64,000 bases of DNA from a marine bacterium B5-7 (lineage in GTDB: Bacteria; Pseudomonadota; Gammaproteobacteria; Arenicellales; CAJQKF01): assembly GCA_021604525.1 (NCBI GenBank), contig BQJD01000003.1:12242-76241 (forward strand). The letters are read 5' to 3'. This document shows positions 20,678 to 48,938 of the stretch, piece by piece. Within the stretch, counting starts at the first letter, position 1; every line of letters starts with the position of its first letter. The translations under genes were made by a program, and so were the position numbers. Below the pieces are notes generated by a model that was given only the letters and a program-made list of their open reading frames with translations, was not told the DNA's origin and made no database searches.

Positions 20678-21559
20678 TCATGGATTACCCGCACGGGTCA
20701 GTAATTCACGCAGAACATTCAGATATCGCGCCTTCGGGTTTTTAGATGGAGCGACCAACCCAACGACACGATAGGTTGGTAGCCGACCGAAGGGAAAGGT
20801 ACGCACGCTTGAAGGAAAAGGTTTTGCGATATTTCTTCTGGGAACCACAGCCACGCCAAGTCCCTTTGAGACCATGCGTGATATGGCTTCCAGTGAATTC
20901 ATTTCCATGCTCGATTTAACCCGGATGCCTTCGGCAAGAATCTGATTTTCAATCAGTCTCCCGGCATATGCATCGCGGTGAAATCGAATAAACGGATGAT
21001 GACCCAGTATCTCGCGGTAACCCGTTTCACGAACCTCGCGGTGAGCGATGACGACGAGTGGTTCGTTAAAACATGGCATCCAGTTGAGTCCGCGATCGAT
21101 GGAATCCGGCATCGATACAATTGCTGCATCCAGTTCACTGTCGCGAACCCGACGGGTTAATTCGACAGATAAATCGCTGAATAACTCTACCTGAAGTTCC
21201 GGAAGGGCTTGTGCCAGTTTCGAGAGGACATCGGGGAGGACACCGGATGTAACCGTCGCAACCGAGCCCAATTTGAATTGTGTCTCTTGAGAAGCACTGA
21301 TCGCTTGAGAATTCGTACTTTCTCGAATCTCGTCACACAGTGCCAATACTTCCCGGGATTTTTCCACAACCGATCGACCGGTAGCGTTCAATACTTGGGG
21401 GCGACAGCTTCTATCGAATAACGGCACGCCGAATTCGCGTTCCAGTTGACGGATCTGAAGACTGACGGCTGACTGGGTTAATCCGATTTTCTGACCGGCT
21501 GCGGCGAATGTGCCGCTATCAGCTATGGATACCAGCGTTCGAAGATTTCTAAGCTCCAT
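20678..21559 (-). CDS. LysR-family transcriptional regulator
   Basis: MELRNLRTLVSIADSGTFAAAG..LTQSAVSLQIRQLE..G.PLFDR HTH; divergent from the CoA-transferase gene. Confidence 0.95.
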   Translation of the reverse strand: MELRNLRTLVSIADSGTFAAAGQKIGLTQSAVSLQIRQLEREFGVPLFDRSCRPQVLNATGRSVVEKSREVLALCDEIRESTNSQAISASQETQFKLGSVATVTSGVLPDVLSKLAQALPELQVELFSDLSVELTRRVRDSELDAAIVSMPDSIDRGLNWMPCFNEPLVVIAHREVRETGYREILGHHPFIRFHRDAYAGRLIENQILAEGIRVKSSMEMNSLEAISRMVSKGLGVAVVPRRNIAKPFPSSVRTFPFGRLPTYRVVGLVAPSKNPKARYLNVLRELLTRAGNP

Positions 21560-21606
21560 TTTTTAAAGGCCGACCAAAGTTTTGAATCAGGCTTAGTAGT
21601 ATAAGA

Positions 21607-21621
21607 ATTAATCGTTCTAAT
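21607..21621. promoter_or_regulatory. candidate LysR recognition site
   Basis: ATTA-N7-TAAT (T-N11-A dyad) in the AT-rich divergent spacer, ~50 bp upstream of lysR. Confidence 0.45.
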
Positions 21622-21741
21622 TGTTAAAAATATTCGTTTGATTAATGTTAACGGAGTTCCTAGACTGTTCTCATTCACACATTCGTGACAGATTTGCGCT
21701 TTGTGTTGCATTAATTCTCATCTCAACCAGTCACCGAAAAC

Positions 21742-23004
21742 ATGATATCTACAACAGCTAAAGGTCCTTTAGAAGGAATCCGCATTCTCGATTTATCTCG
21801 CATCCTGGCTGGGCCAACCTGCACGCAGGTTCTCGGCGACATGGGTGCGGACGTTATCAAGATAGAAAAGGCGGGTGCCGGTGACGATACGCGCAAATGG
21901 GGCCCGCCTTTCGTCAAGGATGCCAACGGGAACGATACCACCGAGAGTGCGTATTACCTCTGCGCCAACCGTAACAAACGTTCCGTGGAAATCGATATTT
22001 CACTCACAGAAGGTCAGGAACTGATTCGCAAACTGGCTGGCGAATGCGATGTATTTATTGAAAACTTCAAGGTGGGTGGGCTTCGCAAATATGGCCTGTC
22101 CCATGATGATCTCAAGGAATCCCGGCCATCTCTCATTTATTGTTCGATCAGTGGATTTGGGCAGGATGGGCCTTATGCCGCACATCCGGGATACGATTTC
22201 ATGATCCAGGCAATGGGTGGGATCATGAGTATTACCGGGCAACCCGATGGCGATCCGACCAAAGTCGGCGTGGGTATTGCCGATGTAATGTGTGGAATGT
22301 ATGCAGCGGTATCAATCCTTGCTGCACTGCATCATCGCGACAAAACCGGTCAGGGACAGTACATCGATCTGGCGCTTCTGGACTGCCAGGCGTCCTGGCT
22401 AATCAATTCCGGACTGAATTACCTGACTTCCGGCAAGACGCCGACGCGCATGGGCAATAGTCACCCCAATATCGTTCCCTATGAAGTATTCCCGGCAAGT
22501 GATGGATATTTCGCGCTCGCAGTGGGTAACGATACGCAGTTTGCCCGGTTCTGTGATGTTGCAGGTGCCCCCGAACTCGCTGTCGATCCGCATTATGTGA
22601 CCAACTCTCTGCGTGTTGAACACCGTGAAGAACTTGTACCGAAATTACGGCGTATTACGGTCGAGCGGCACGTTGACGATTGGCTGAATGCACTGCAACT
22701 TGCCAAAGTGCCGTGTGGCCCGGTCAACGATATCAGACAGGTATTCGAGGACCCGCAGATCAAGCATCGCAACATGCAAATCAGTATGGCGCACCCGCTG
22801 TCTGGCAGTGGATCAGTTGATTTGATCGGTAGTCCCATTCGTTTCGGGAAAACTCCGGTCACATATCGCCATGCACCGCCGGTCATGGGTCAACATACGG
22901 ACGAGGTTCTTGAAGAGCTATTGAATCTTGATGCGAACGTTCGAAAGTCGTTGCGTGCACGCGGTGTAACCGGTAAACAATCACCAGGCGATGGGGATCA
23001 ATAA
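21742..23004 (+). CDS. class III (CaiB/BaiF) CoA-transferase, likely 3-sulfinopropionate-activating by context
   Basis: ILDLSRILAGP, GADVIKIE, GDDTRKWGPP, NRNKRS, ENFKVG, GYDFMIQAMGG, catalytic Asp in GIADVMCG. Confidence 0.9.
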   Translation: MISTTAKGPLEGIRILDLSRILAGPTCTQVLGDMGADVIKIEKAGAGDDTRKWGPPFVKDANGNDTTESAYYLCANRNKRSVEIDISLTEGQELIRKLAGECDVFIENFKVGGLRKYGLSHDDLKESRPSLIYCSISGFGQDGPYAAHPGYDFMIQAMGGIMSITGQPDGDPTKVGVGIADVMCGMYAAVSILAALHHRDKTGQGQYIDLALLDCQASWLINSGLNYLTSGKTPTRMGNSHPNIVPYEVFPASDGYFALAVGNDTQFARFCDVAGAPELAVDPHYVTNSLRVEHREELVPKLRRITVERHVDDWLNALQLAKVPCGPVNDIRQVFEDPQIKHRNMQISMAHPLSGSGSVDLIGSPIRFGKTPVTYRHAPPVMGQHTDEVLEELLNLDANVRKSLRARGVTGKQSPGDGDQ

Positions 23005-23005
23005 G

Positions 23006-24208
23006 ATGTTCTCGTTACCCCAGGAGCAACTTGAACTACAACAACGCGCACGCGATCTGGCAGTACGGGTTATCGCCCCTCGCGCGGCCGATATCGATAT
23101 CTCTCAGGAATATCCATGGGATAACGTCAAGGCGTTGACCGATGCCGGTTTCATGGGGATGACCATTGCCGAGAACCATGGCGGACCGGGTCTGTCCTTT
23201 CTTGATGCCGTGGTCGTGATCGAAGAAATGGCCAGGGTATGTGCTGTCACGGCGCGAATTGTCGTTGAAGGCAACATGGGCGCTATCAGCGCAATCATGA
23301 AGTATGGTAGCGATAAGCAAAAACGCATGGCTGCCGAACGCGTTCTGACGGGGGATAAGCCGGCTATATGTATCACTGAACCGGAAGCGGGAAGCGCCGC
23401 TTCGCATATGACAACACGGGCAGATAAAAAAGGCGATCGCTATGTGTTGAATGGTTTTAAACACTGGATTACCGGCGGCGGAGTATCTGATCTTCACCTG
23501 GTTTTTGCGCGCGTATTTGATGACGGTAAGGAACTTGGTATCGGCGGGTTTATAGCGTTTCGTGAAGAGGATAAAGGACTGATAGTCGGTCGTCGCGAGC
23601 CTACCATGGGGTTACGAGGCATTCCCGAGACCGAGATTATTATCGAAAATCTCGAACTTTCCAGCGATCGCTTGATCCAACCGCCTGAAGGTCTTGCGCG
23701 TGGATTTGCCGGGTTAATGAATGCATATAATGCCCAACGCGTTGGTGCCGCTACCGCAGCCATAGGTATCGCACAAGGCGCCTATGAAAAGGCGCTTGAG
23801 TACAGTCAATTGCGCAATCAGTTTGGCAGACCAATCAGTGAATTTCAGGGTTTGCAATGGATGATGGTCGATATGAGCATTCAGCTGGCTGCGGCACGTG
23901 GTTTAATTTATCAGGCAGCATCTAGTGGCTCGAAATTCCCTGATGCCACACTGGCAGCACAGGCAAAAATTCTTGCCTCTGAATCGGCAATCAAGATAAC
24001 CAACGATGCGTTGCAGATATTCGGCGCAGCCGGTTATTCAAGGAACCTGCCCATGGAACGAATGGTGCGCGATGCGCGTATGTTTACTATTGGTGGTGGC
24101 ACTGTGCAAATTTTACGTACCATGGTCGCAGGACAATTACTGGGCCGGAAACTACCGCAAACAAGAGACGGCTATGTTGACCCGGTCAAAGTAGAAACGG
24201 CAATATGA
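23006..24208 (+). CDS. acdA: 3-sulfinopropionyl-CoA desulfinase-like acyl-CoA dehydrogenase-fold protein (alternative start 22991)
   Basis: closely recalls Advenella/Variovorax Acd: YPWDNV..L.DAGFMGM, GDKPAICI.EP.AGSAAS, WITGGGVS.LHL.FARVFDDG, AYNAQRVGA, RDARMFTI.GGT.QILRT, KLPQTRDGY; Arg (TARI), Cys (AICI) and Gln (NAQR) at the desulfinase active-site positions as recalled. Confidence 0.82.
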   Translation: MFSLPQEQLELQQRARDLAVRVIAPRAADIDISQEYPWDNVKALTDAGFMGMTIAENHGGPGLSFLDAVVVIEEMARVCAVTARIVVEGNMGAISAIMKYGSDKQKRMAAERVLTGDKPAICITEPEAGSAASHMTTRADKKGDRYVLNGFKHWITGGGVSDLHLVFARVFDDGKELGIGGFIAFREEDKGLIVGRREPTMGLRGIPETEIIIENLELSSDRLIQPPEGLARGFAGLMNAYNAQRVGAATAAIGIAQGAYEKALEYSQLRNQFGRPISEFQGLQWMMVDMSIQLAAARGLIYQAASSGSKFPDATLAAQAKILASESAIKITNDALQIFGAAGYSRNLPMERMVRDARMFTIGGGTVQILRTMVAGQLLGRKLPQTRDGYVDPVKVETAI

Positions 24209-25845
24209 TTGCTGCTGAAGTAATTGCACGACGCCTTGCTCTGGCTGGCGTTAAAGAAGCCTACGGGATACCTGGAGGCGAAGTACTGACATTCGTAAAC
24301 AGCCTTGCCGATGCCGGGATTCGGTTTGTCCTGTGCAAACATGAAAATGCCGGTGGCTTCATGGCCGAGGGTGCCTACCATGCGAGTGGTGCACCCGGTG
24401 TGCTGGTTGCAACACTCGGCCCTGGCGTTGCCAATGCGGTTAACGTTATGGCGAATGCCTTGCAGGATCGGGTGCCGATGCTGTTGATTACGGGTTGTGT
24501 CGATTCATCTGAAGCTGCGACTTACACCCATCAGGTTTTCGATCATGGTGCGTTATTGTCCTGTGTCACCAAAGCGACGATGACCATTGCTGACGGTGCA
24601 GTGGACGTCATGATCGATAAGGCACTGGCCATAGCCATGCAGGATCCTCCAGGGCCTGTACATCTTGATCTGCCGATATCGGTCGCTCACAAGGAACAAA
24701 AGGACCCTGCATATCAAATTGAAAAGGCCATGCCACTGCGTGGCACGCCGCGTGTTGGCGAGTCGCTTGAGACAGCCTCTAAATGGCTGGCCGAGGCTCG
24801 TCGGCCGATAATCATAGCCGGGCTCGAGGTGTTGTATCAGGGTGCGGAGGAAGCTGTTTCTGCGTTTGTTAAGACTAATTCCGTACCACTTATTACCACG
24901 TATAAAGCCAAGGGAATTCTCGACGAGGAACATCCTTTGAGTCTGGGTGCAGCCGGTCTGTCTCCTAAAGCTGATGATCTTCTTCTACCTCTGGTAAGCG
25001 AAAGCGACTGTATTATCCTCGCCGGCTACGATCCAATCGAAATGCGCAGTGGCTGGAAAAATCCATGGCCGGAAGATGCCCGTGTCATCGAGTTCTCAGC
25101 AGTTCCAAACGTCCATTACATGCATCATTCGCGATTTGAATTTATTGGCGATATCGGTGCTGGCCTTGAAGCATTAACGAAGTGCGTTACCGATCTGGAT
25201 ATCGTTGTCACTGATAATTCGCGGCCCAGTCCAAAGGTTGATGACGCCGTAGTATTAATACAAAAGAAACTGGCCTCATACTTTGGCGCCGGCCTTGACG
25301 ATTGGGGACCGCGCGCCGTGATAGACGTCGCCCGATCCGTACTTCCGCGAAACACCGTTGCAACGGTTGATTCAGGCGCTCATCGGATACTGCTGAGCCA
25401 GATGTGGACATGTTACACACCACGGACATTATTGCAGTCGACCGGGTTATGCACCATGGGCTGTGCCTTGCCGATGGCAACAGGCTACAAACGCCTGAAT
25501 CCACAGACACCTGTTGCGGCTTTCATGGGTGACGGCTGTCTTGAAATGGTGTTGGGTGAGCTTGCCACATTGCGGGACAGCGGTTTGCCCGTGACGGTGA
25601 TCGTGTTTGTCGACGAATCCCTCGCACTCATCGAATTGAAACAGCGCAAACTTAACTATCAAAATGTTGGTGTGGATTTTACCGGCACCGATCTTGCTGC
25701 AGTCGCTGAAGCGATGGGTGGCCGAGGTGTGACTGTCGATACTCGCGACTCGCTTGTCTCGGCCATTAATGAATCTCTTGATGCCACGACCTTCACTCTG
25801 ATCGCTTGTATCATCAGCCGCAAAGCCTACGATGGTCTGTTCTGA
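24205..25845 (+). CDS. thiamine diphosphate-dependent enzyme (acetolactate synthase-like fold), function unknown
   Basis: GIPGGEV, catalytic HE (KHENAGGFMAEG), LGPGVAN, GDG motif; ATGA overlap with acd. Confidence 0.88.
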   Translation: MIAAEVIARRLALAGVKEAYGIPGGEVLTFVNSLADAGIRFVLCKHENAGGFMAEGAYHASGAPGVLVATLGPGVANAVNVMANALQDRVPMLLITGCVDSSEAATYTHQVFDHGALLSCVTKATMTIADGAVDVMIDKALAIAMQDPPGPVHLDLPISVAHKEQKDPAYQIEKAMPLRGTPRVGESLETASKWLAEARRPIIIAGLEVLYQGAEEAVSAFVKTNSVPLITTYKAKGILDEEHPLSLGAAGLSPKADDLLLPLVSESDCIILAGYDPIEMRSGWKNPWPEDARVIEFSAVPNVHYMHHSRFEFIGDIGAGLEALTKCVTDLDIVVTDNSRPSPKVDDAVVLIQKKLASYFGAGLDDWGPRAVIDVARSVLPRNTVATVDSGAHRILLSQMWTCYTPRTLLQSTGLCTMGCALPMATGYKRLNPQTPVAAFMGDGCLEMVLGELATLRDSGLPVTVIVFVDESLALIELKQRKLNYQNVGVDFTGTDLAAVAEAMGGRGVTVDTRDSLVSAINESLDATTFTLIACIISRKAYDGLF

Positions 25846-25997
25846 ATGTGGTTTTAATCTTACCAGTCTTCAAGTTGGTAAAGTGACTGTAAGGTGTTGG
25901 CAAATCAGTCTTGCGCATCTATGATCTGGGGCAGGGCGCGTTTACAACAATGTGCCTCATATAAATCGCGTAATCGTCGACTGGACACACGCCGCCC

Positions 25998-27014
25998 ATG
26001 AACAGTGTTTCACCTTTTGGTCGGGCTGAGGGCAACGCCCTCTGCAACGTTGGCTTTTTTCTCATCGAATCTTTTTCGATGATGGCGTTTGTCTCGGCGC
26101 TTGAGCCTCTTCGCATCGCCAACCGTATGTCCGGGCAATCACTTTACGACTGGCAGGTTATCAGCGAAGATGGCCGACCGGTGATGCCAACCAATGGCGT
26201 CACCGAAGTGCCGGCGATGTATTCCATTGATAATGCACCGGATTTTGAAGTGTTATTTGTTTGCGGTGCATTTGATCCTCTCGACTATCGCTCCCCCCGT
26301 GTATTCAGTTGGCTGAATCACCTCGCAAGAAACAATACCTGTTTAGGCGGGGTCGATACCGGTAGCCACGTACTTGCACGAGCCGGCTTGCTGAAAGATA
26401 AACGCTGCACCATTCACTGGGAAAACATGCAGGGCTTCGTGAGTGAATTTGCAGATCTCAAGGCGTCCCACGAAATTTATGAGTACGACAGTTATCGATT
26501 GACCTGCGCCGGTGGCACTGCGGCAATGGACATGATGCTTTACTTCATTGAACAGCAGCAGGGTCTTGAACTTGCTGCATCGGTATCGGATGTTCTTATC
26601 CATCCCAATATTCGTCATGGTCACCATCCACAGCGAATGAGCGTTGAAGCACGAACCGGTGTTCGCCATGCGGGTTTATTGGAATGCATCGAGTTAATGG
26701 AGGCTAATCTTGAGCAACCATTAACACCTAGTGAGTTATCGACGATGATCAACGTATCGAAACGACAACTTGAACGACTGTTTCGGCGTTACCTTCACTC
26801 TACTCCGGCCAGATACTATCTGTCGTTGCGTCTCAATGAAGCAAAACGACTCCTTGAACAATCCTCCATGCCGATAATTGATGTCGCTATTTCCTGCGGA
26901 TTCAATTCTGCCGGCCATTTCTCTTACCGATATCGTTCCTATTTCGGAGTGAGTCCACGGACAGCGCGTTCACGTGCCACGCGAGGAACATCGGAAATTG
27001 CTGCGGCAGTTTGA
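25998..27014 (+). CDS. GlxA-family (GATase-like + AraC) regulator, GbdR/CdhR-like
   Basis: FSMMAFVSALEPLRIANR, GGVDTGS..LARAGLL, CTIHWEN, TCAGGTAAMD, RQLERLF, GFNSAGHFS. Confidence 0.93.
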   Translation: MNSVSPFGRAEGNALCNVGFFLIESFSMMAFVSALEPLRIANRMSGQSLYDWQVISEDGRPVMPTNGVTEVPAMYSIDNAPDFEVLFVCGAFDPLDYRSPRVFSWLNHLARNNTCLGGVDTGSHVLARAGLLKDKRCTIHWENMQGFVSEFADLKASHEIYEYDSYRLTCAGGTAAMDMMLYFIEQQQGLELAASVSDVLIHPNIRHGHHPQRMSVEARTGVRHAGLLECIELMEANLEQPLTPSELSTMINVSKRQLERLFRRYLHSTPARYYLSLRLNEAKRLLEQSSMPIIDVAISCGFNSAGHFSYRYRSYFGVSPRTARSRATRGTSEIAAAV

Positions 27015-27060
27015 AGGCAACGGTTTCTACCTGTCTTAGGTGATACATCGGCGCTGTTCT

Positions 27061-27087
27061 TGACGCGTATTTGCTAATTCGTGTCGC
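27061..27087 (+). promoter_or_regulatory. candidate GlxA-family regulator box A
   Basis: TGACGC-N15-TGTCGC, 21-bp period, 73 bp upstream of mttB1; 18/27 identical to 48789-48815. Confidence 0.55.
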
Positions 27088-27159
27088 CAATACGCCACGT
27101 CTTAATGGGGCAGCGGGCAAACTTTGATCTTTCAATGTACGTAATCGTGGGGTACCCGC

Positions 27160-28764
27160 ATGGGACATGAAAGTTCGAGTACTGTGAAGAAACGACCAGG
27201 TGGTCGTAGTGCCAGGCATGAATTGCGCAGTCGACAACTGCCGCAGGATGAACAGCCTGTGCGGCCGGGGTTGCCTGGCGGTGGACGCTATCACCCACTG
27301 ACCGATACAGATGTTGTCCGAATTCACAATGCCGCTCTTGATGCTTTGGAAAATATCGGCATGGCCAATTCCATTCCCTCATGCATTGACTTACTCACTG
27401 GCGCAGGCGCACGCCTTGCTGATAATGGTCGCATCCTGTTTCCCCGTTCATTGGTGGAAGATGTTATTGCCAATTCTGCGCATGAGATCACCCTGTATGC
27501 ACGAAACCCGGAACAACATGTTCATGCAGGTGATAACCGTGTGTACTTTGGTACGGCCGGCGCTGCAGTACATATGGTGGATGCGGTTAGTGGGATGTAT
27601 CGGGAATCAACACTGAAAGATTTATATGATGCGGGTCGCATCGTCGATCGCCTCGACAATATTCATTTCTTCCAACGGTGCATGGTCGCGCGTGATGTCC
27701 CGGATCCGCGAGAGATGGATCTTAACACCTGCTATGCCTCGATCAGCGCGACAAGCAAGCACGTCGGTACGTCGTTTGTCGATCCGGAACATGCTGAAGA
27801 AGCGCTCAGGATGTTGCATCTCCTGGCGGGGAGCGAAGCACAGTGGCGGGCACAACCCTTTGTCAGTTGTTCCTGCTGTTTTGTAGTACCACCGTATCGC
27901 TGGGCAGAGGACGCCTGTCGGGTACTCGAGACAGTCGTTCGTGGGGGGATGCCGATCCTGCTATTGGCTGCAGGGCAGGCAGGTGCAACCAGTCCGGCGT
28001 CATTGGCCGGGGCGGTGGTTCAGGAAGTCGCTGAAGTTTTGGCAGGACTCGTATATGTTCACGCAATCAAACCGGGTCATCCTGCAATATTCGGGACCTG
28101 GCCGTTTATATCCGACCTTAGAACGGGCGCCATGAGTGGCGGAAGCGGCGAACAGGCGGTGCTAATGGCGGCCTGTGGTCAAATGGGTCGTTTTTATAAC
28201 CTGCCGACCGGAATTGCTGCCGGCATGGCGGATTCAAAGGTGCCTGATACGCAGTCGGGATTTGAGAAAGGCTATACCGATGTACTGGCGGCTCACAGCG
28301 GGGCAAACCTGATTTATGAATCGGCTGGAATGCAGGCGAGTTTACTCGGCATGTGTCACGAATCGTTGGTTATCGATAACGACATGCTGGGAGCAATCAA
28401 TCGAACCGTGCGTGGCATTGAAGTCGATGACGAGTCGTTATCGCTTGAGAGTATGCGCAATGTCTGTCTGGAGGGGCCAGAGCATTATCTCGGGCATCCG
28501 CAAACGCTGTCATTGATGCAGAAAGATTACATCTACCCCGATGTCAGTGATCGGCTCAGCCCAAATGAATGGGCGGAGCAGGGCAGACTGACGATTGTGG
28601 ATCGTGCCCGGATACGTGTGAGTGAAATACTGGATAACCACTTTCCGGCGCATATCGACCCTGCGGTGGACCGAAAGATACGTGAGAATTTCCCGATAAA
28701 ATTGCCCGTTGAATCCATGCGACCCGCATCTGATACGATCGCCTCATCTGTCATTGAAAAATGA
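27160..28764 (+). CDS. MttB-family (non-pyrrolysine) methyltransferase, paralog 1
   Basis: RVYFGTAGAA, AGQAGATSPASLAGAVVQ, KPGHPAIFG, DLRTGA, DSKVPDTQSGFEK, GANLIYESAG; no in-frame TAG. Confidence 0.9.
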   Translation: MGHESSSTVKKRPGGRSARHELRSRQLPQDEQPVRPGLPGGGRYHPLTDTDVVRIHNAALDALENIGMANSIPSCIDLLTGAGARLADNGRILFPRSLVEDVIANSAHEITLYARNPEQHVHAGDNRVYFGTAGAAVHMVDAVSGMYRESTLKDLYDAGRIVDRLDNIHFFQRCMVARDVPDPREMDLNTCYASISATSKHVGTSFVDPEHAEEALRMLHLLAGSEAQWRAQPFVSCSCCFVVPPYRWAEDACRVLETVVRGGMPILLLAAGQAGATSPASLAGAVVQEVAEVLAGLVYVHAIKPGHPAIFGTWPFISDLRTGAMSGGSGEQAVLMAACGQMGRFYNLPTGIAAGMADSKVPDTQSGFEKGYTDVLAAHSGANLIYESAGMQASLLGMCHESLVIDNDMLGAINRTVRGIEVDDESLSLESMRNVCLEGPEHYLGHPQTLSLMQKDYIYPDVSDRLSPNEWAEQGRLTIVDRARIRVSEILDNHFPAHIDPAVDRKIRENFPIKLPVESMRPASDTIASSVIEK

Positions 28765-28785
28765 CTTGAACCTATTTAAAAATGG

Positions 28786-29742
28786 CTACTGACTCTCGTC
28801 CAGGCCGATAAATGTGCGCATGGCGGGTAACGCTGATGCGCCATCGCGCGTGGTAACTCCTTTGAGCCATGACTCGAGAATCTTCGGCTGCTGCCTCATC
28901 CAGGCAATGGCTGCAACCAATGGCTGCGCCTTGAGATCGAGGATGGCAGTCATGACTTCGTTAATCATCGGCAGGCTGAACTCAAGGTTGCCGAATAACA
29001 GGGCAAGATTCGGGCAGTTTTGTGCGAAGTTCGATCCGAGTCCGGTATAGGCATCGGCTCCACCAAACGAAGGTCCGAACACGTCATCTCCTCCGTCGAG
29101 ATAATAGATGTCGAATCGGACATTCATGGGATGTGGTTCGAAGGCCAGGAACACCATGGGTTTACCCGTCTGATTAGCTTCGGCAATTCTTTGCACAAGA
29201 TCGGCTTCGGATGATTCGACGAGTTTGAACTGCGCGAGGTGAAATTTGTTTTCGTCGATCATTTTTTGAATGAGAAAATTTCCGTCAGAACCCGGCTCGA
29301 CTCCATAAATCCTGTACGATAACGCCTCTTGCTGTTGGCTGATGTTGCTAAAGTTTTCTATGCCAAGGGTATGGCCATGACTGTTAACAGCCAGGGTGTA
29401 TTTCGTACCATGCAGATTTTGACGGACCAATTCCAGCGAGTTGTCAATAATATAAGGTCGTAGCGATGCACCCATGGTCGGTACCAGGATGTCCAGGGAT
29501 ATATCCAGATCCTGGTTTTTAATGCTTGCAAAAATGGTTGGAGGTGAAAGTACCTGGTGACTCGTCTCATAACCGAGTCCGCGTAGAAGAGCGGTTGCGA
29601 TTGCCAGTGATGCACCGGCATCCAGCCAGCCGACAGTGCCGAACCGTACCCTCTCGCAGCGATCTGTATCCTGGGCATGGACCGGCAATATCGTAATCAT
29701 CAGTACGTATGCCAGTAGTACTATCGAAGCAAATGCTTTCAT
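28786..29742 (-). CDS. quaternary amine ABC substrate-binding protein, ChoX-like
   Basis: signal peptide; VGWLD, KYTLAV, YGVEPGSDGN, EPHPMN, YLDGGDDVFGP. Confidence 0.88.
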   Translation of the reverse strand: MKAFASIVLLAYVLMITILPVHAQDTDRCERVRFGTVGWLDAGASLAIATALLRGLGYETSHQVLSPPTIFASIKNQDLDISLDILVPTMGASLRPYIIDNSLELVRQNLHGTKYTLAVNSHGHTLGIENFSNISQQQEALSYRIYGVEPGSDGNFLIQKMIDENKFHLAQFKLVESSEADLVQRIAEANQTGKPMVFLAFEPHPMNVRFDIYYLDGGDDVFGPSFGGADAYTGLGSNFAQNCPNLALLFGNLEFSLPMINEVMTAILDLKAQPLVAAIAWMRQQPKILESWLKGVTTRDGASALPAMRTFIGLDESQ

Positions 29743-39836: not shown

Positions 39837-42800
39837 ATGAGCCTTGAAACGCACCACCCGGGAGATCCAGAGGATTGTGTATCCACAACGTTGCGTGAAC
39901 AAATTCGCGCGGCATACCTACCTGATGAAGCGCAAATTGTTGCAAAGAGGGCGGTCGAGGCGGATCTTGATATAGACGCCCGTCAACGGATTTCATCACA
40001 TGCTGCGCAACTGATCGAAGCAGTACGTGAGCGTTCCGATCCTGGCCTGATGGAGGTTTTTTTAGCCGAATATGGTCTGTCAACACGCGAAGGTGTGTCA
40101 TTGATGTGCCTGGCCGAGGCTTTGCTACGTGTGCCCGATGCCGAGACCATCGATGCCCTTATCGACGACAAGATAGCCCCTTCGGATTGGGGGCAACATC
40201 TCGGCCATTCGAGTTCATCTTTGGTTAATGCATCAACCTGGGCACTGATGCTGACCGGAAAAGTGCTGTCCGACAACGACGGCAGTTTGATCGGTACATT
40301 GCGATCGGCAGTGCGGCGTCTGGGCGAGCCGGTTATTCGGACCGCTATCGGACAGGCGATGAAAGAACTGGGTCGGCAGTTTGTTCTTGGGCGATCGATC
40401 GAAGAAGCAATGGAACGCGCCAGGGGAATGGAATCACGCGACTATGTTTATTCCTACGACATGCTGGGTGAAGCGGCGCGTACCGAGGCTGACGCCCGCC
40501 GGTATCATTTATCCTATTCTGATGCTATTACCGCGCTTGCCCCTGCCTGTCGATCAAGCGATATCCAGCGGAATCCCGGGATCTCGGTAAAGCTGTCCGC
40601 ACTGCATCCACGATATGAAGAATCCCAACGCGAACGGGTTATGGAAATCCTGGTCGCCAGGACCCGCTCTCTCGCACTGATTGCGAGATCGGCCGGAATG
40701 GGCTTCAACATCGATGCCGAGGAAGCAGATCGACTCGACTTGTCCCTCGACGTCATCGAGATGGTGTTATCGGACCCGGCATTGAAGGGTTGGCATGGTT
40801 TTGGTGTGGTCGTTCAGGCCTACGGTCCGAGAGCCTCACTGGTCCTCGACTGGCTGTATGCGTTGGCCGAACGACTGGATCGACGAATCATGGTGCGTCT
40901 GGTCAAGGGAGCTTACTGGGACACGGAAATCAAGCGTGCGCAAGTACTCGGACTCGATGGCTTTCCTGTATTTACCCGAAAAGTCAGTACCGATGTTTCC
41001 TATATTGCCTGCGCGCGTAAATTGCTTTCAATGACTGATCGCATCTATCCGCAATTTGCTACGCATAATGCGCATACCATGGCGGCGGTTCTTGAGATGG
41101 CATCGGATAATGATGCGTACGAATTCCAGCGACTACACGGCATGGGGGAGGCGCTCCACGACATCGTGAAGACTTCCAACAATGCTCGCTGTCGTATTTA
41201 TGCGCCGGTGGGCGCGCATCGTGATCTGCTTGCCTATCTGGTTCGGAGATTACTCGAGAATGGCGCCAACAGTTCTTTTGTGAATCAGATAGTGGACGAA
41301 AGCGTACCGGCTGAAGAGATCGCTCGAGACCCGTTCGATGTAGCGATAAATTCAGGTGCGGCAATCGTCAATCCGTCAATTACGCATCCCTTTAACCTGT
41401 TCGGTGAGTCGCGGCGAAATTCAAAAGGTTACGACCTGACTTATCGATCTCATCTCGATCAAATCGAAATCGAACGTGAAACGTTTAATAACACCATCTG
41501 GCAGGCCGGTCCCATGATAGCCTCGTCGGTAACCGGTGATCGGCGAGTCAAGGTGGTAAACCCGGCCGATAATTCGCAAACGGTTGGTGAGGTTATCGAA
41601 ACAAGCGATGCGGATGTTGATGCGGCTCTCGATAATGCGATTGATAGCGTGGCCAGATGGAGCGGTTTGTCTGCTTGCGAGCGTGCCAACCGGCTTCGCC
41701 TGACAGCGGATTTGTTTGAGGAGAATGCCGTCGAATTGTTTGCTCTCGCCTCGCGCGAGGCTGGCAAAATTATGCTTGATTGTGTCGGTGAAGTACGTGA
41801 GGCGGTCGATTTTCTGAGATTCTATGCGAGTGAGGCTGAACGGCTCGGGGATGGTGCTACTTCAAGGGGCGTGTTTGTATGTATCTCACCATGGAATTTC
41901 CCCCTGGCAATATTCACCGGACAGGTTGCCGCCGGGTTGGCGGCGGGTAATGCAGTTATAGCCAAACCTGCCGAACAAACGCCACTGATTGCAGCTCGTG
42001 CAGTCGCATTGATGCATGAGGCAGGCGTGCCGGTCGATGTTCTCCAGTTACTTCCGGGTGATGGCGCCACGGTGGGTGCGCGCCTTGCCGGCGATGCGCG
42101 AATCCAGGGGCTTTGTTTCACAGGATCTACTGCTACGGCGCAATTGATAAATCGTTCCATGGCGGCAAAGGTAACGCCGGATGCACCGTTGATTGCAGAG
42201 ACAGGTGGTCTCAATGCAATGATCATTGATTCCACGGCGCTACCCGAACAGGCGGTTCGCGACGTCGTTGTTTCAGCCTTTCAAAGCGCTGGCCAGCGTT
42301 GCTCAGCACTTCGCGTCTTGTATGTTCAAAAGGATGTCGAAGCCCGGTTCATGGAAATGTTGTTCGGTGCCATGGATGAGTTGGTAATCGGTGACCCATG
42401 GCAACTTGCCACGGACGTTGGGCCGGTTATCGATGCCGAATCGCGCCAACGAATCAATCAGCATGTGGATTCCTATGCAGCCCGCGGACGATTGATGAAG
42501 CGGCTCGATGCACCGACTGATGGCTTGTTCGTCGGTCCGGCTGTCCTCAAGGTGGACGGCATTGCAGAACTCGAAGAGGAAATATTCGGACCGGTGCTGC
42601 ACGTGGCGAGTTTTGCCGCCGACGATATAGACAAGGTGGTGGACGACATAAATCAGAGTGGCTATGGACTGACATTCGGACTTCACACTCGCATTGACGA
42701 CCGTGTTCAACAGGTGGTGGATCGAATTAGGGTCGGCAATGTTTATGTTAATCGTAACCAGATCGGCGCTATTGTTGGCTCCCAGCCATTTGGTGGTGAG

Positions 42801-43409
42801 GGTCTTTCCGGTACCGGGCCCAAGGCAGGCGGTCCACACTACGTTGAACGTTTCATGCGCCATTTAATGCCGCAATATGAGAATGTCAGCGGCCCACCCG
42901 CACTGTTGGATGAAGTGCGGGCAGCATTGGCCACCTTTAACAATACCGATGACATCCTGGTCGAAGTCACTGATCTGCCGGGGCCTACGGGTGAATCGAA
43001 TCGTTTATCAGCCTACGGACGTGGAGTCGTTCTATGTCTTGGACCTGGCGTTGAGGTGGCGTTTACACAGGCGAATGAGGCAATGGCAGCAGGCTGCAAG
43101 GCGGTCGTGGTGGCTCCTGGTGCAAGTGACTCGGTGGATATTGCAAACGAGAGTTTGAAAGTGTGCGATGGAATTCTGGGTCCGCAGGAGGTAGCCGGTC
43201 TTGATGGTATCGATGCAGTGATTCTATGGGGGAGGGAGCAGGATATGCGCGAGATGCGAATGGCCCTGGCATCGAGAGGTGGAGCGCTTATTCCGCTGAT
43301 AGCCGAATCAGGTGTACGCTCCCGCTACTTGATCGAGCGTCACTTGTGCATCGACACCACTGCAGCCGGAGGCAATGCTTCATTGTTGGCGGTTGCCGGC
43401 GATGTTTGA
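39837..43409 (+). CDS. putA: bifunctional proline dehydrogenase / P5C dehydrogenase PutA (no N-terminal RHH)
   Basis: MCLAEALLRVPD, SYDMLGE, IDAEE, RLVKGAYWD.EIK, FATHNAHT, YLVRRLLENGAN, ISPWNFP, ETGG, SAGQRCSA, GPKAGGP. Confidence 0.97.
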   Translation: MSLETHHPGDPEDCVSTTLREQIRAAYLPDEAQIVAKRAVEADLDIDARQRISSHAAQLIEAVRERSDPGLMEVFLAEYGLSTREGVSLMCLAEALLRVPDAETIDALIDDKIAPSDWGQHLGHSSSSLVNASTWALMLTGKVLSDNDGSLIGTLRSAVRRLGEPVIRTAIGQAMKELGRQFVLGRSIEEAMERARGMESRDYVYSYDMLGEAARTEADARRYHLSYSDAITALAPACRSSDIQRNPGISVKLSALHPRYEESQRERVMEILVARTRSLALIARSAGMGFNIDAEEADRLDLSLDVIEMVLSDPALKGWHGFGVVVQAYGPRASLVLDWLYALAERLDRRIMVRLVKGAYWDTEIKRAQVLGLDGFPVFTRKVSTDVSYIACARKLLSMTDRIYPQFATHNAHTMAAVLEMASDNDAYEFQRLHGMGEALHDIVKTSNNARCRIYAPVGAHRDLLAYLVRRLLENGANSSFVNQIVDESVPAEEIARDPFDVAINSGAAIVNPSITHPFNLFGESRRNSKGYDLTYRSHLDQIEIERETFNNTIWQAGPMIASSVTGDRRVKVVNPADNSQTVGEVIETSDADVDAALDNAIDSVARWSGLSACERANRLRLTADLFEENAVELFALASREAGKIMLDCVGEVREAVDFLRFYASEAERLGDGATSRGVFVCISPWNFPLAIFTGQVAAGLAAGNAVIAKPAEQTPLIAARAVALMHEAGVPVDVLQLLPGDGATVGARLAGDARIQGLCFTGSTATAQLINRSMAAKVTPDAPLIAETGGLNAMIIDSTALPEQAVRDVVVSAFQSAGQRCSALRVLYVQKDVEARFMEMLFGAMDELVIGDPWQLATDVGPVIDAESRQRINQHVDSYAARGRLMKRLDAPTDGLFVGPAVLKVDGIAELEEEIFGPVLHVASFAADDIDKVVDDINQSGYGLTFGLHTRIDDRVQQVVDRIRVGNVYVNRNQIGAIVGSQPFGGEGLSGTGPKAGGPHYVERFMRHLMPQYENVSGPPALLDEVRAALATFNNTDDILVEVTDLPGPTGESNRLSAYGRGVVLCLGPGVEVAFTQANEAMAAGCKAVVVAPGASDSVDIANESLKVCDGILGPQEVAGLDGIDAVILWGREQDMREMRMALASRGGALIPLIAESGVRSRYLIERHLCIDTTAAGGNASLLAVAGDV

Positions 43410-47132: not shown

Positions 47133-48674
47133 TCAGTTGTTTGAATCCGGCAGCGATGCCTTGCGCTGTTCGATAAATGCCAGCAACGCCTCATCGATAC
47201 CCGGATCAATTGGCGGTGCCTGGTACTCGCGCAACATCTTTTTGTAGACCGCATTGGCGCGCGCGCTGGTGTCGAGACTGCCCTCGCTGCTCCACTGCTC
47301 GAAGCTGTTATTGTCGGTGACATTCGACCTGTAAAAAGCCTGTTCGAAGTTTGCCAGGGTATGGGCACATCCAAGAAAATGCTTACCCGGTCCCACTTCT
47401 CGCAACGCATCCATTGCCTGGCCGTTTTCCGATGTATCGATGCCACCAAGGAATACGCCAACCATCGCAGCCTGGTCGGCGTCCATGATGAATTTTTCAT
47501 AGCCCATAACCAGACCACCTTCCAGCCAGCCGGCGGTATGCAGCATGAAATTGACGCCTGCCATTGCCGCTGCCTGCATGGTATTCGCGGATTCGTAAGC
47601 GGCTTGGGCATCCGCAATTTTCGATCCGCACAGTCCGCCGCCGGAACGAAATGGGACACCTAGTCGTCGCGAAAGCGCGGCGCAGATATTCAGCACTAAT
47701 GACGGTTCCGGCGTGCCGAATGTCGGTGCGCCGGACTGCATGGAAATGGAGCTTGAGAATGTGCCGAAAACCACTGGTGCGCCGGGCTTGACCAATTGCA
47801 CGAAGCATATCCCCGCCAGCGCCTCGGCGAGTATCTGGGCACAGGTGCCAAGGGTGGTCACCGGTGACATGGCACCGGATAAGATAAACGGCGAAATCAC
47901 GGTTGCCTGATTATGTTTGGCGTAGACCCGTGCCGCACCGAGCATGGTGCTGTCAAATGTCATTGGTGAATTGGCGTTGATGAGATTAATCAATACGCAG
48001 TGCTGTTCGACGAATTCATCGCCAAAGACAAGCTTCGCCATCTGTACCGAATCCTCGGCTCTCTCCGGCGCTGTGACCGAACCCATGAAGGCCTTGTCGC
48101 TATAGCGGATATGGCTATAGACCATCTCAAGGTGACGCTTGGTCACCGGCAGGTCCACCGGCTCGCATAAGGTACCGCCATTGTGATGCAGACCAGGTGA
48201 CATGTAGGCGAGCTTGGCGAAGTTGCGAAAATCCTCGATATTTGCATAACGTCGGCCTTCGTCCTGATTGCGAATGAAGGGCGGTCCGTACGCCGGTACG
48301 AGTACCGTATTGTTGCCGCCTATTACAACATTTCTCTCAGGATTACGGGCGTACTGGATGAATTCGGCAGGCGCGCTGCGGGTAATGATTTCACGACACA
48401 TGCCCTTGGGGAACCGCACCCGGTCGCCGTCGATGTCACAGCCTTCGCGACGAAATAATTCAAGGGAATCAGGGTCGTCATGAAAATCGATCCCGATTTC
48501 GGCGAGAATAATCTCGGCGTTATGCTCGACAAGTTCGAGAACCTCCTCCGAGGCAATTTCATAAGTCGGCACCTGGCGCTTGATGTAGGGCGGGCTTACC
48601 GGTTTGGTTTGTTCCCGGGTGATACGCCTTGCATCGCGTCCGCCACCGCGGCGCCGTCCTGTATTCTCAGCCAT
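47133..48674 (-). CDS. MttB-family (non-pyrrolysine) methyltransferase, paralog 2
   Basis: RRRGGGRDARR N-terminus, VPAYGPPF, CEPVDLP, FMGSVT, INANSP, GAMSPVT, GAPTFGTPE, HTAGWLEGGL, YEKFIMD; no in-frame TAG. Confidence 0.92.
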   Translation of the reverse strand: MAENTGRRRGGGRDARRITREQTKPVSPPYIKRQVPTYEIASEEVLELVEHNAEIILAEIGIDFHDDPDSLELFRREGCDIDGDRVRFPKGMCREIITRSAPAEFIQYARNPERNVVIGGNNTVLVPAYGPPFIRNQDEGRRYANIEDFRNFAKLAYMSPGLHHNGGTLCEPVDLPVTKRHLEMVYSHIRYSDKAFMGSVTAPERAEDSVQMAKLVFGDEFVEQHCVLINLINANSPMTFDSTMLGAARVYAKHNQATVISPFILSGAMSPVTTLGTCAQILAEALAGICFVQLVKPGAPVVFGTFSSSISMQSGAPTFGTPEPSLVLNICAALSRRLGVPFRSGGGLCGSKIADAQAAYESANTMQAAAMAGVNFMLHTAGWLEGGLVMGYEKFIMDADQAAMVGVFLGGIDTSENGQAMDALREVGPGKHFLGCAHTLANFEQAFYRSNVTDNNSFEQWSSEGSLDTSARANAVYKKMLREYQAPPIDPGIDEALLAFIEQRKASLPDSNN

Positions 48675-48743
48675 TGTCGAAACCTCATTGTCGATTAATG
48701 CAGCGAATGATTCAGTATCAACCGGTTTGGTGCTGACTGTGCT

Positions 48744-48770
48744 GCGACACCGATAGTGTTGCCCGCGCCA
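48744..48770 (-). promoter_or_regulatory. candidate GlxA-family regulator box C (faces mttB2)
   Basis: minus strand TGGCGC-N15-TGTCGC, 21-bp period, ~70 bp upstream of the mttB2 start. Confidence 0.45.
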
Positions 48771-48788
48771 ACGGATGATATAAACCCT

Positions 48789-48815
48789 CGACGCAATTCA
48801 GATAATCCGAGTCGC
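48789..48815 (+). promoter_or_regulatory. candidate GlxA-family regulator box B (faces the GcvT-family gene)
   Basis: CGACGC-AATTCA-GATAATCCG-AGTCGC; 18/27 identical to box A. Confidence 0.5.
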
Positions 48816-48938
48816 GCCAGATTGCGGCGCCGATCTTTCTGACGAATACACTTCACGGTTGGGGTGCGAGGCGTTAAAGTCGCGTCTCCCGATTGAGAAA
48901 AACGTACCCATAATTGCATAAAGACTTCGAGGATCAGC

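Follow-up and report, generated by a model that had tools for sequence, protein, structure and literature searches.

An acetolactate synthase-like, thiamine diphosphate-dependent enzyme linked to 3-sulfinopropanoyl-CoA desulfinase in marine bacteria: a proposed 2-oxo acid decarboxylase

Introduction

In Advenella mimigardefordensis DPN7, the cluster for breakdown of 3,3'-dithiodipropionate (DTDP) holds genes for a LysR regulator (MIM_c31370), a family III CoA-transferase (c31380), the desulfinase Acd (c31390) and the 3-mercaptopropionate dioxygenase Mdo (c31400) (PMC5373536). In Variovorax paradoxus TBEA6, whose succinyl-CoA:3-sulfinopropionate transferase is of the type matched by the CoA-transferase described below, the mdo/act/acdA cluster also includes a putative acetolactate synthase (ALS), "IlvX" (VPARA_05550), beside a semialdehyde dehydrogenase and a 2-hydroxy-acid dehydrogenase; IlvX is induced 6.8-fold on 3-sulfinopropionate, and its deletion leaves growth on 3,3'-thiodipropionate (TDP) unaffected (PMC6370202). 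Here we describe a related locus in a 64-kb window (the whole stretch of DNA that was analysed: 64,000 nucleotides of contig BQJD01000003.1 from the marine gammaproteobacterium B5-7), in which the genes for a CoA-transferase and a desulfinase are followed by an open reading frame (ORF) for an ALS-like, thiamine diphosphate (ThDP)-dependent enzyme.

We propose that this protein belongs to a distinct branch of the ALS/pyruvate oxidase (POX) superfamily and acts as a 2-oxo acid decarboxylase that depends on ThDP and Mg2+ but not on FAD. That it decarboxylates a free 2-oxo acid upstream of the CoA-transferase/desulfinase module seems to us somewhat probable. The narrower proposal, that it is a non-oxidative decarboxylase of 2-oxo-4-sulfinobutanoate whose product, 3-sulfinopropanal, feeds that module, is advanced tentatively and with rather less than even confidence. 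The question has a wider bearing, in that 3-sulfinopropanoyl-CoA desulfinase has been studied only in the breakdown of synthetic DTDP and TDP, yet is frequent among marine bacteria, being present in 22 of the 61 relatives of this genome that we examined. The ThDP enzyme is the partner most often encoded beside it, ahead of both the CoA-activating enzyme and the dioxygenase of the textbook route, and the identity of the ThDP enzyme's substrate would reveal the natural compound that the carriers desulfinate.

Results

The operon and its predicted products

The three genes of the operon are as follows.

21742..23004, plus strand: family III CoA-transferase (Pfam CoA_transf_3, E 3e-132)
22991..24208, plus strand: predicted 3-sulfinopropanoyl-CoA desulfinase with acyl-CoA dehydrogenase (ACAD) fold (NF042439), overlapping the CoA-transferase gene by 14 nt
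24205..25845, plus strand: ThDP enzyme of an uncharacterised ALS-like family, proposed 2-oxo-4-sulfinobutanoate decarboxylase (Pfam, alignment and model)

The ThDP gene encodes 546 amino acids, and its ATG start overlaps the upstream TGA stop as ATGA gcaatATGAttg. From the overlapping reading frames we predict that the three genes form one transcription unit, with the ThDP gene last and translationally coupled. The ACAD-like product passes the desulfinase model NF042439 (646 bits; cut-off 600), scores 520 bits against the solved Advenella enzyme AcdDPN7 (5AF7), and conserves Arg84 (Arg89 here), Gln246 and the GGGT motif, in which Gly takes the place of the catalytic Glu, confirming its prediction as a 3-sulfinopropanoyl-CoA desulfinase. 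The best NCBIfam match of the CoA-transferase is succinate-glutarate CoA-transferase, at 504 bits and below the 750 cut-off; it scores 368 bits against human SUGCT (9BR6) and 253-286 bits against the CoA:oxalate and formyl-CoA transferase models. A reading made from the sequence alone (hereafter the sequence-only reading) had named these two neighbours correctly. The locus thus has the components of a 3-sulfinopropionate module: a desulfinase with Arg84 and Gln246 and without the catalytic Glu, a CoA-activating enzyme and a LysR regulator. The operon itself contains no CDO_I-family (Mdo) gene, the genome's only matches lying on contigs C6 and C28.

Assignment of the ThDP-dependent enzyme

The ThDP protein has the Pfam domains TPP_enzyme_N, TPP_enzyme_M and TPP_enzyme_C (E 7e-33, 2e-21 and 3e-31, all above cut-off). 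Its AlphaFold2 model (pLDDT 88.4, pTM 0.90) superposes on catabolic ALS, acetohydroxyacid synthase (AHAS), CEAS, HKA synthase and 2-hydroxyacyl-CoA lyase (HACL) with TM scores of 0.84-0.87 and 22-27% identity, which bears out the ALS-like fold noted from the sequence; the structure prediction suggested at the same time as a check goes no further, the fold search ranking ALS, AHAS, CEAS, HKA synthase and HACL about equal. The hallmarks of the POX/ALS group are all present, namely three domains in one chain, an activating Glu and the GDG-X26-(N/D) Mg2+/diphosphate motif, here G442-D443-G444 ... V469-D470-E471-S472. E47 (in KHENAGGFMAEG), G442-D443-G444 and D470 are invariant in both sets of family members compared (84 and 40 sequences) and align with the same residues of Klebsiella ALS (KpALS). 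The VFVDES ending had been taken as a peculiarity of this protein. The motif is there, but KpALS reads GDG...IWVDNG at the aligned position, also with Asp as the second Mg2+ ligand; D470 is therefore normal for the catabolic-ALS type, and we ruled the ending out as a functional clue.

For class assignment we relied on curated NCBIfam models with their score cut-offs, and no class model was passed. The best match, a generic "ALS large subunit" model, reached 336 bits against a cut-off of 509; the AlsS models TIGR02418 and NF006378 gave 247 (551) and 275 (510) bits, the AHAS model TIGR00118 gave 258 (538), the Xsc models gave 167-178 (620-676; TIGR03457, 167 against 676), and NF058623, for HACL and oxalyl-CoA decarboxylase (Oxc), gave 168 (600). 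By sequence and by family profile (260-285 bits) the nearest solved relative is catabolic ALS, and in both kinds of search ALS comes ahead of the Oxc and HACL chains. True AHAS and Xsc are encoded on other contigs of the same genome, the former by two large-subunit genes (852 and 671 bits) and the latter at C32:7180-8922 (1061 bits), and the ThDP gene is therefore an extra paralogue. Its middle domain carries GAAGLSP and GYDPIEMR, in contrast to MLGMHG and (V/A)RFDDR in the genome's own AHAS, motifs linked to the FAD-type AHAS middle domain; GYDPIEMR is akin to GYSPVEYE of the FAD-free catabolic ALS, and this FAD-free type of domain favours non-oxidative chemistry. As the sequence-only reading had observed, the vicinity of the operon holds neither an AHAS small subunit nor an ilv gene, the neighbours being the LysR, CoA-transferase, desulfinase and a GbdR-like regulator, and we found no acetolactate decarboxylase gene (alsD/budA), the partner of AlsS/BudB, here or in the neighbourhoods of 151 related loci. 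That reading's alternative of an Xsc- or ComDE-like role is not supported, in view of the Xsc scores, the genuine Xsc on C32 and the architecture. ComDE consists of two short PYR and PP subunits, or their fusion, without a middle domain; the 546-residue chain has a full TPP_enzyme_M domain, and no ComDE model is among its 25 best NCBIfam matches. To judge from its sequence, the enzyme is not an ALS, AHAS, Xsc or Oxc/HACL, and represents a separate, uncharacterised branch of the ALS/POX superfamily.

The residues invariant across the same 84 and 40 sequences are E26, E47, H109-Q110, H393-R394, C416, M418, D443, D470, L475 and K479-Q480-R481. Among them, E26, C416, L475 and K479 replace K36, Q420, M479 and Q483 of KpALS, which we take to be ALS pocket residues, the pocket roles of E26, C416 and K479 being assigned by alignment. 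An acidic side chain close to the cofactor might donate a proton, and a distal sulfinate or other anionic tail might be held by a cationic cluster that includes R394, R481 and K479; both features would suit a decarboxylase of an acidic 2-oxo acid.

In this context, we consider it very improbable that the protein is a genuine carboligase (a catabolic ALS or acyloin synthase) or an Xsc/ComDE-like desulfonating enzyme, placed here by chance or through sulfite stress. Catabolic ALS does provide the closest solved structures and the closest models, and KpALS shares the HQ motif and the Asp Mg2+ ligand. Nonetheless, every ALS, AHAS and Xsc model failed, those functions are already encoded in the genome by the two AHAS genes and the Xsc gene, neither alsD nor a small-subunit gene is a neighbour, other residues stand invariantly in place of K36, Q420 and Q483 of the ALS pocket, and the linkage to the desulfinase described below is far above chance.

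Genomic linkage of the family

More than 5000 database proteins match the ThDP protein at E <= 1e-20. The best 120 matches, at 55-67% identity, come from marine Alpha- and Gammaproteobacteria, SAR324, Comamonas and others, and family members from Alpha-, Beta- and Gammaproteobacteria and SAR324 are 50-66% identical. From 167 genomic loci we retained 151 non-redundant ones in 51 groups at 68% identity, and counted orthologues within 5 kb of the ThDP gene; the counts were cross-checked by tblastn, antisense shadow ORFs from high-GC loci having found their way into the initial ORF clusters. The recurring neighbours are as follows.

CoA-transferase orthologue (55-69% identity): 80 of 151 loci, 25 of 51 groups
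Desulfinase orthologue: 76 of 151 loci, 30 of 51 groups
LysR orthologue (41-46% identity): 36 of 151 loci, 17 of 51 groups
OpgC-like membrane protein: 17 of 151 loci, 11 of 51 groups
TTC38-like tetratricopeptide repeat (TPR) protein: 16 of 151 loci, 11 of 51 groups
Class I aminotransferase: 14 to 19 of 151 loci

On the family tree, linkage to the desulfinase occurs in all major branches, including the basal ones. The ThDP protein of the window lies in a clade whose every member is linked to both desulfinase and CoA-transferase, and the Roseibium/Stappiaceae and Rhodobacteraceae clades, which lack an adjacent desulfinase, are nested inside linked clades. When the search was seeded with the desulfinase instead (80 loci), the ThDP gene lay immediately downstream in 37 and was the commonest neighbour, followed by LysR (16), CoA-transferase (14), MsrB (13) and the TTC38-like gene (11). 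Among the 61 relatives of the window's genome, eight carry the ThDP enzyme, and all eight also carry the desulfinase (Fisher p = 1.1e-4). With a desulfinase in eight of eight carriers and in 22 of the genomes overall, the ThDP enzyme looks like an addition to the desulfinase route that is often present but can be dispensed with.

The link is not obligatory, since a CoA-transferase/ThDP pair occurs without the desulfinase in Roseibium-type genomes. At Roseibium aggregatum L038 6713-9605 and some 25 further Roseibium/Labrenzia loci the two genes form a pair, often abutting. A search for a hidden desulfinase in Roseibium, Breoghania and Pseudovibrio was negative: the closest ACAD paralogues lack Arg84 and Gln246, and most keep the catalytic Glu. 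In the lineages without a desulfinase, either the pair has a broader substrate range or its product is disposed of differently.

The closeness of this pair speaks in favour of a different logic, that of Oxc and HACL, in which an acid such as 2-hydroxy-4-sulfinobutanoate would be CoA-activated first, the ThDP enzyme would cleave or decarboxylate the ester, and formyl-CoA would be recycled by the transferase. The two genes often overlap or abut, in 80 of the 151 loci they are neighbours, and the pairing persists where the desulfinase is missing; the transferase does match the CoA:oxalate and formyl-CoA transferase models to the extent given above, and HACL folds are as close to the model as ALS folds (TM 0.84-0.85). 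We nonetheless regard this as quite unlikely. The ThDP protein reaches only 168 of the 600 bits that the HACL model demands, against 336 bits for the best ALS-type model, and the family profile puts catabolic ALS first; adjacent alpha-aminotransferases, described below, point to a free 2-oxo acid; and thirty-odd loci have desulfinase and ThDP enzyme with no transferase nearby. We know of no ALS-clade enzyme that uses CoA esters.

The same pairing bears on another reading, that the enzyme decarboxylates a dicarboxylic 2-oxo acid, 2-oxoadipate or 2-oxoglutarate, and passes glutarate or succinate to the SUGCT-like CoA-transferase, the desulfinase being linked secondarily through the shared transferase. 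Succinate-glutarate CoA-transferase is the transferase's best curated match, Roseibium and Stappiaceae retain the ThDP/CoA-transferase pair in genomes without a desulfinase, an SSADH-like gene is a neighbour in Comamonas, and cyanobacteria are known to have ThDP enzymes, annotated as ALS, that act as 2-oxoglutarate decarboxylases. Against this, desulfinase linkage is the most widespread state on the family tree, the desulfinase's commonest neighbour is the ThDP gene ahead of the CoA-transferase, every ThDP-positive relative carries the desulfinase, no glutaryl-CoA dehydrogenase recurs in the 151 loci, and succinate would need no CoA-transferase route. On balance, we hold the dicarboxylic reading to be rather unlikely.

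Aminotransferases, dehydrogenases and other recurring neighbours

Several independent neighbourhood observations suggest a 2-oxo acid at the ThDP step. In Pandoraea, Achromobacter, Comamonas, Cupriavidus, one Bradyrhizobium and one Streptomyces, a class I aminotransferase gene whose best match is aspartate transaminase lies immediately upstream of the ThDP gene, and in three gammaproteobacterial lineages a class I aminotransferase gene, again with aspartate transaminase as best match, lies immediately downstream and is of a different type in two of them; the two types are only about 28% identical to each other. In Comamonas the arrangement is LysR / aminotransferase-ThDP-TctC, followed about 1.4 kb on by a succinate-semialdehyde dehydrogenase (SSADH)-type aldehyde dehydrogenase. 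The SAR324 cluster L086:1-8644 encodes an ABC transporter, an FAD amine-oxidase-type protein, CoA-transferase, a TauD-like dioxygenase (226 bits, under the taurine dioxygenase cut-off), a DNA_alkylation-domain protein, desulfinase and ThDP enzyme, and is the only one of the DAO/amine-oxidase loci that we counted as a 2-oxo acid source. DAO-family oxidases as a general source were rejected: they occur at 13 loci, but as generic sub-threshold amine-oxidase matches, and in L040 accA intervenes. Aspartate-type aminotransferases, an SSADH-type dehydrogenase and a dicarboxylate-type CoA-transferase together indicate that the substrate is acidic and a mimic of glutamate, 2-oxoglutarate and succinate.

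Other genes recur near the module. TauD-like genes are also found at L018, L030, L153 and L154. The TTC38-like TPR protein, of about 450 amino acids (L173:3084-4466, L087:8919-10304, L064:5235-6620, and C2:2820-4166 in the window's own genome), is encoded by a gene that sometimes overlaps the ThDP gene, and, independently, is encoded next to the desulfinase in 11 of 54 desulfinase-seeded loci, ten of them without a ThDP gene; it looks like a third, unexplained partner of the module. The OpgC-like polytopic membrane protein is encoded at 17 alphaproteobacterial loci (11 ThDP groups; for example L037:9654-11030, L044:9666-11192 and L010:3524-4711), adjoining the ThDP and TTC38-like genes and mostly without an adjacent desulfinase. 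In desulfinase-free genomes both genes often adjoin the ThDP/CoA-transferase pair, and neither protein has a Pfam or NCBIfam match. In 22 Rhodospirillales loci (6 groups; for example L031:10867-11292) an MsrB gene closely follows the ThDP gene, and in 17 of the 22 a glutathione S-transferase-like gene comes next; the adjacency may reflect gene order conserved within the lineage or may hint at a connection with oxidised sulfur amino acids. An AhpD/CMD-family gene beside the module in two distant loci (L087:3509-4111 and L088:8654-9202) recalls MIM_c31410, which follows mdo in Advenella.

Regulation and surroundings of the operon

The features that flank the operon are as follows.

20678..21559, minus strand: LysR-family regulator (Pfam HTH_1 and LysR_substrate), divergent from the operon
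21606..21622, no strand assigned: candidate LysR box AATTA-N7-TAATT (T-N11-A), by sequence inspection, in the 182-nt divergent intergenic region
21627-21598, minus strand: sigma-70-like site TTAACA-18-TATACT for the lysR gene, a consensus match only, overlapped by the candidate LysR box
25897..25925, plus strand: promoter-like site TTGGCA-17-TATGAT (consensus scan, 10/12), in the 152-nt gap 3' of the ThDP gene
25998-27014, downstream of the ThDP gene: GbdR-like AraC regulator, in the next unit (betaine/MttB region)

The divergent LysR protein passes no NCBIfam equivalog model and is likely to be the activator of the CoA-transferase/desulfinase/ThDP operon. No terminator-like site was called in the 152-nt gap; the promoter-like site there opens the next unit, and we therefore place the end of the operon at the ThDP gene. 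No other sulfur genes occur in the rest of the window, which is devoted to the catabolism and transport of amino acids and compatible solutes. Its genes include those for two pyrrolysine-free MttB-family methyltransferases (27160-28764 and 47133-48674), PutA (39837-43409), a DAO-GcvT fusion dehydrogenase (48939-51452) and an OpuAC binding protein. With the GbdR-like regulator, these genes (25998-29742 and 47133-51452) give the operon quaternary-amine and compatible-solute catabolic surroundings. Its closest relatives, L084 and L085, share the synteny LipB, Cu-oxidase_4, CoA-transferase, desulfinase, ThDP and GbdR-like gene, without the LysR gene.

Discussion

The general pathway that we propose can be set out as follows. 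L-homocysteine sulfinate, the most likely starting compound, would be converted to 2-oxo-4-sulfinobutanoate by an aspartate-type aminotransferase. The ThDP enzyme would then strip C1 as CO2 to give 3-sulfinopropanal, which an SSADH-type aldehyde dehydrogenase would oxidise to 3-sulfinopropionate; the family III CoA-transferase encoded in the same operon would form 3-sulfinopropanoyl-CoA, and the desulfinase would release sulfite and propionyl-CoA. Within this scheme we infer the decarboxylase chemistry, its substrate, and the aminotransferase and aldehyde dehydrogenase steps. The sulfinate series from homocysteine sulfinate to 3-sulfinopropionate fits the acidic signals of the neighbouring enzymes and ends at the known substrate of the desulfinase. 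The sequence-only reading had likewise assigned the enzyme a C4-to-C3 decarboxylase role, and this fares well in so far as the gene is an extra, non-biosynthetic paralogue tied to the module and adjoined elsewhere by aspartate-type aminotransferases; of the substrates then offered, a methionine keto acid fits the acidic signals poorly.

The latter point leads to the remaining alternative, in which the decarboxylase chemistry is the same and the substituent at C4 is another: 4-mercapto-2-oxobutanoate from homocysteine, or 4-methylthio-2-oxobutanoate from methionine. The thiol would pass through 3-mercaptopropanal and 3-mercaptopropionate to 3-sulfinopropionate by way of a cysteine dioxygenase (CDO)-type enzyme, and the thioether through methional to methylmercaptopropionate. 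The genome does have a CDO_I-family cupin and a rhodanese (C28:10197-12421), MsrB directly follows the ThDP gene in the 22 Rhodospirillales loci, the gamma-type aminotransferase homologue in the same genome adjoins metF, and some of the 3-mercaptopropionate of marine sediments probably originates from homocysteine and methionine. At the same time, no CDO or Mdo gene recurs in the 151 ThDP-seeded or the 80 desulfinase-seeded neighbourhoods; the aminotransferases, aldehyde dehydrogenase and CoA-transferase found in linkage are each similar to enzymes whose substrates are acidic and dicarboxylate-like; the invariant K479, R394 and R481 suggest an anionic tail; and a methylthio acid would not need the desulfinase. 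We therefore regard these other C4 substituents as unlikely.

Several observations weigh against the decarboxylation of 2-oxo-4-sulfinobutanoate itself. In the literature searched, homocysteine sulfinate was not found to have a natural source in the sea. Of 20 genomes in which no desulfinase adjoins the gene, eight have one elsewhere and 12 have none anywhere; the desulfinase-free carriers (Roseibium, Stappia, Pseudovibrio and Breoghania) keep the CoA-transferase and identical ThDP active-site residues, and the common substrate of the family may therefore not be a sulfinate. The operon in the window has neither an aminotransferase nor an aldehyde dehydrogenase gene, homologues lying elsewhere in the genome; one of these, next to metF and 130 kb distant, matches the gamma-type aminotransferase at 53%. 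An aldehyde dehydrogenase gene is near the ThDP gene in only 3 of the 167 loci, so that the oxidation of 3-sulfinopropanal must fall to a housekeeping enzyme. The CDO_I-family cupin on C28, a possible 3-mercaptopropionate or cysteine dioxygenase whose gene is followed by that of a 543-residue multi-rhodanese protein, could make 3-sulfinopropionate from 3-mercaptopropionate without the ThDP enzyme, and its presence would make the ThDP route one of two entries. Finally, the roles given to the pocket residues are putative assignments, made from the KpALS alignment and known ALS structures.

The literature searched contains no characterisation of the ThDP family and no bacterial homocysteine-sulfinate pathway. 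If the proposed pathway is real, ThDP enzymes would gain a further reaction, marine organosulfur cycling would gain a branch that yields sulfite, and oxidised sulfur amino acids would have an undescribed route of breakdown, homocysteine sulfinate being a sulfur analogue of glutamate. In its fullest form, the proposal is of a new ThDP family specific for 2-oxo-4-sulfinobutanoate, within an undescribed pathway from homocysteine sulfinate to propionyl-CoA and sulfite that is widespread in marine Alpha- and Gammaproteobacteria and SAR324 and is the main natural feed of the desulfinase; this we consider possible but doubtful.

The enzyme can be compared with several known systems. With the catabolic ALS of Klebsiella (KpALS, BudB; 1OZF) and Bacillus subtilis (AlsS; 4RJJ) it shares the three-domain fold (TM 0.86-0.87), the FAD-free middle domain, the catalytic Glu, the HQ motif and the GDG...(V)D site with Asp as second ligand; it differs in identity (about 25%), in its changed pocket residues, and in being tied to organosulfur CoA enzymes with no acetolactate decarboxylase as neighbour. 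Like Oxc with formyl-CoA transferase, and like the HACL systems, it is a ThDP enzyme of the same overall fold paired with a family III CoA-transferase, but by sequence it groups with ALS, and its transferase is SUGCT-like, not Frc-like. Xsc belongs to the same ThDP superfamily, acts in organosulfur catabolism and releases sulfite; to judge from mechanism, however, a C4 sulfinate of a 2-oxo acid would not be eliminable from the ThDP enamine as sulfite is by Xsc. IlvX of Variovorax, a possible orthologue of the ThDP protein of the window, behaves as would be expected of an alternative entry enzyme, and its data serve here as a parallel only; a scan of 151 genomes from Variovorax's bacterial family found an orthologue of the window's protein in only one.

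A further likeness is to the Advenella module. Regulator type, gene order (LysR / CoA-transferase, desulfinase) and desulfinase family are the same as in the window. The two differ in that no methylcitrate-cycle genes adjoin the window operon and, above all, in the fourth gene, which encodes the cupin dioxygenase Mdo in Advenella and the ThDP enzyme in the window. With a ThDP enzyme in the slot of Mdo, the precursor of the desulfinase's substrate is presumably a 2-oxo acid, not 3-mercaptopropionate, and the ThDP gene would provide an alternative substrate supply to the desulfinase in place of the 3-mercaptopropionate dioxygenase of Advenella.

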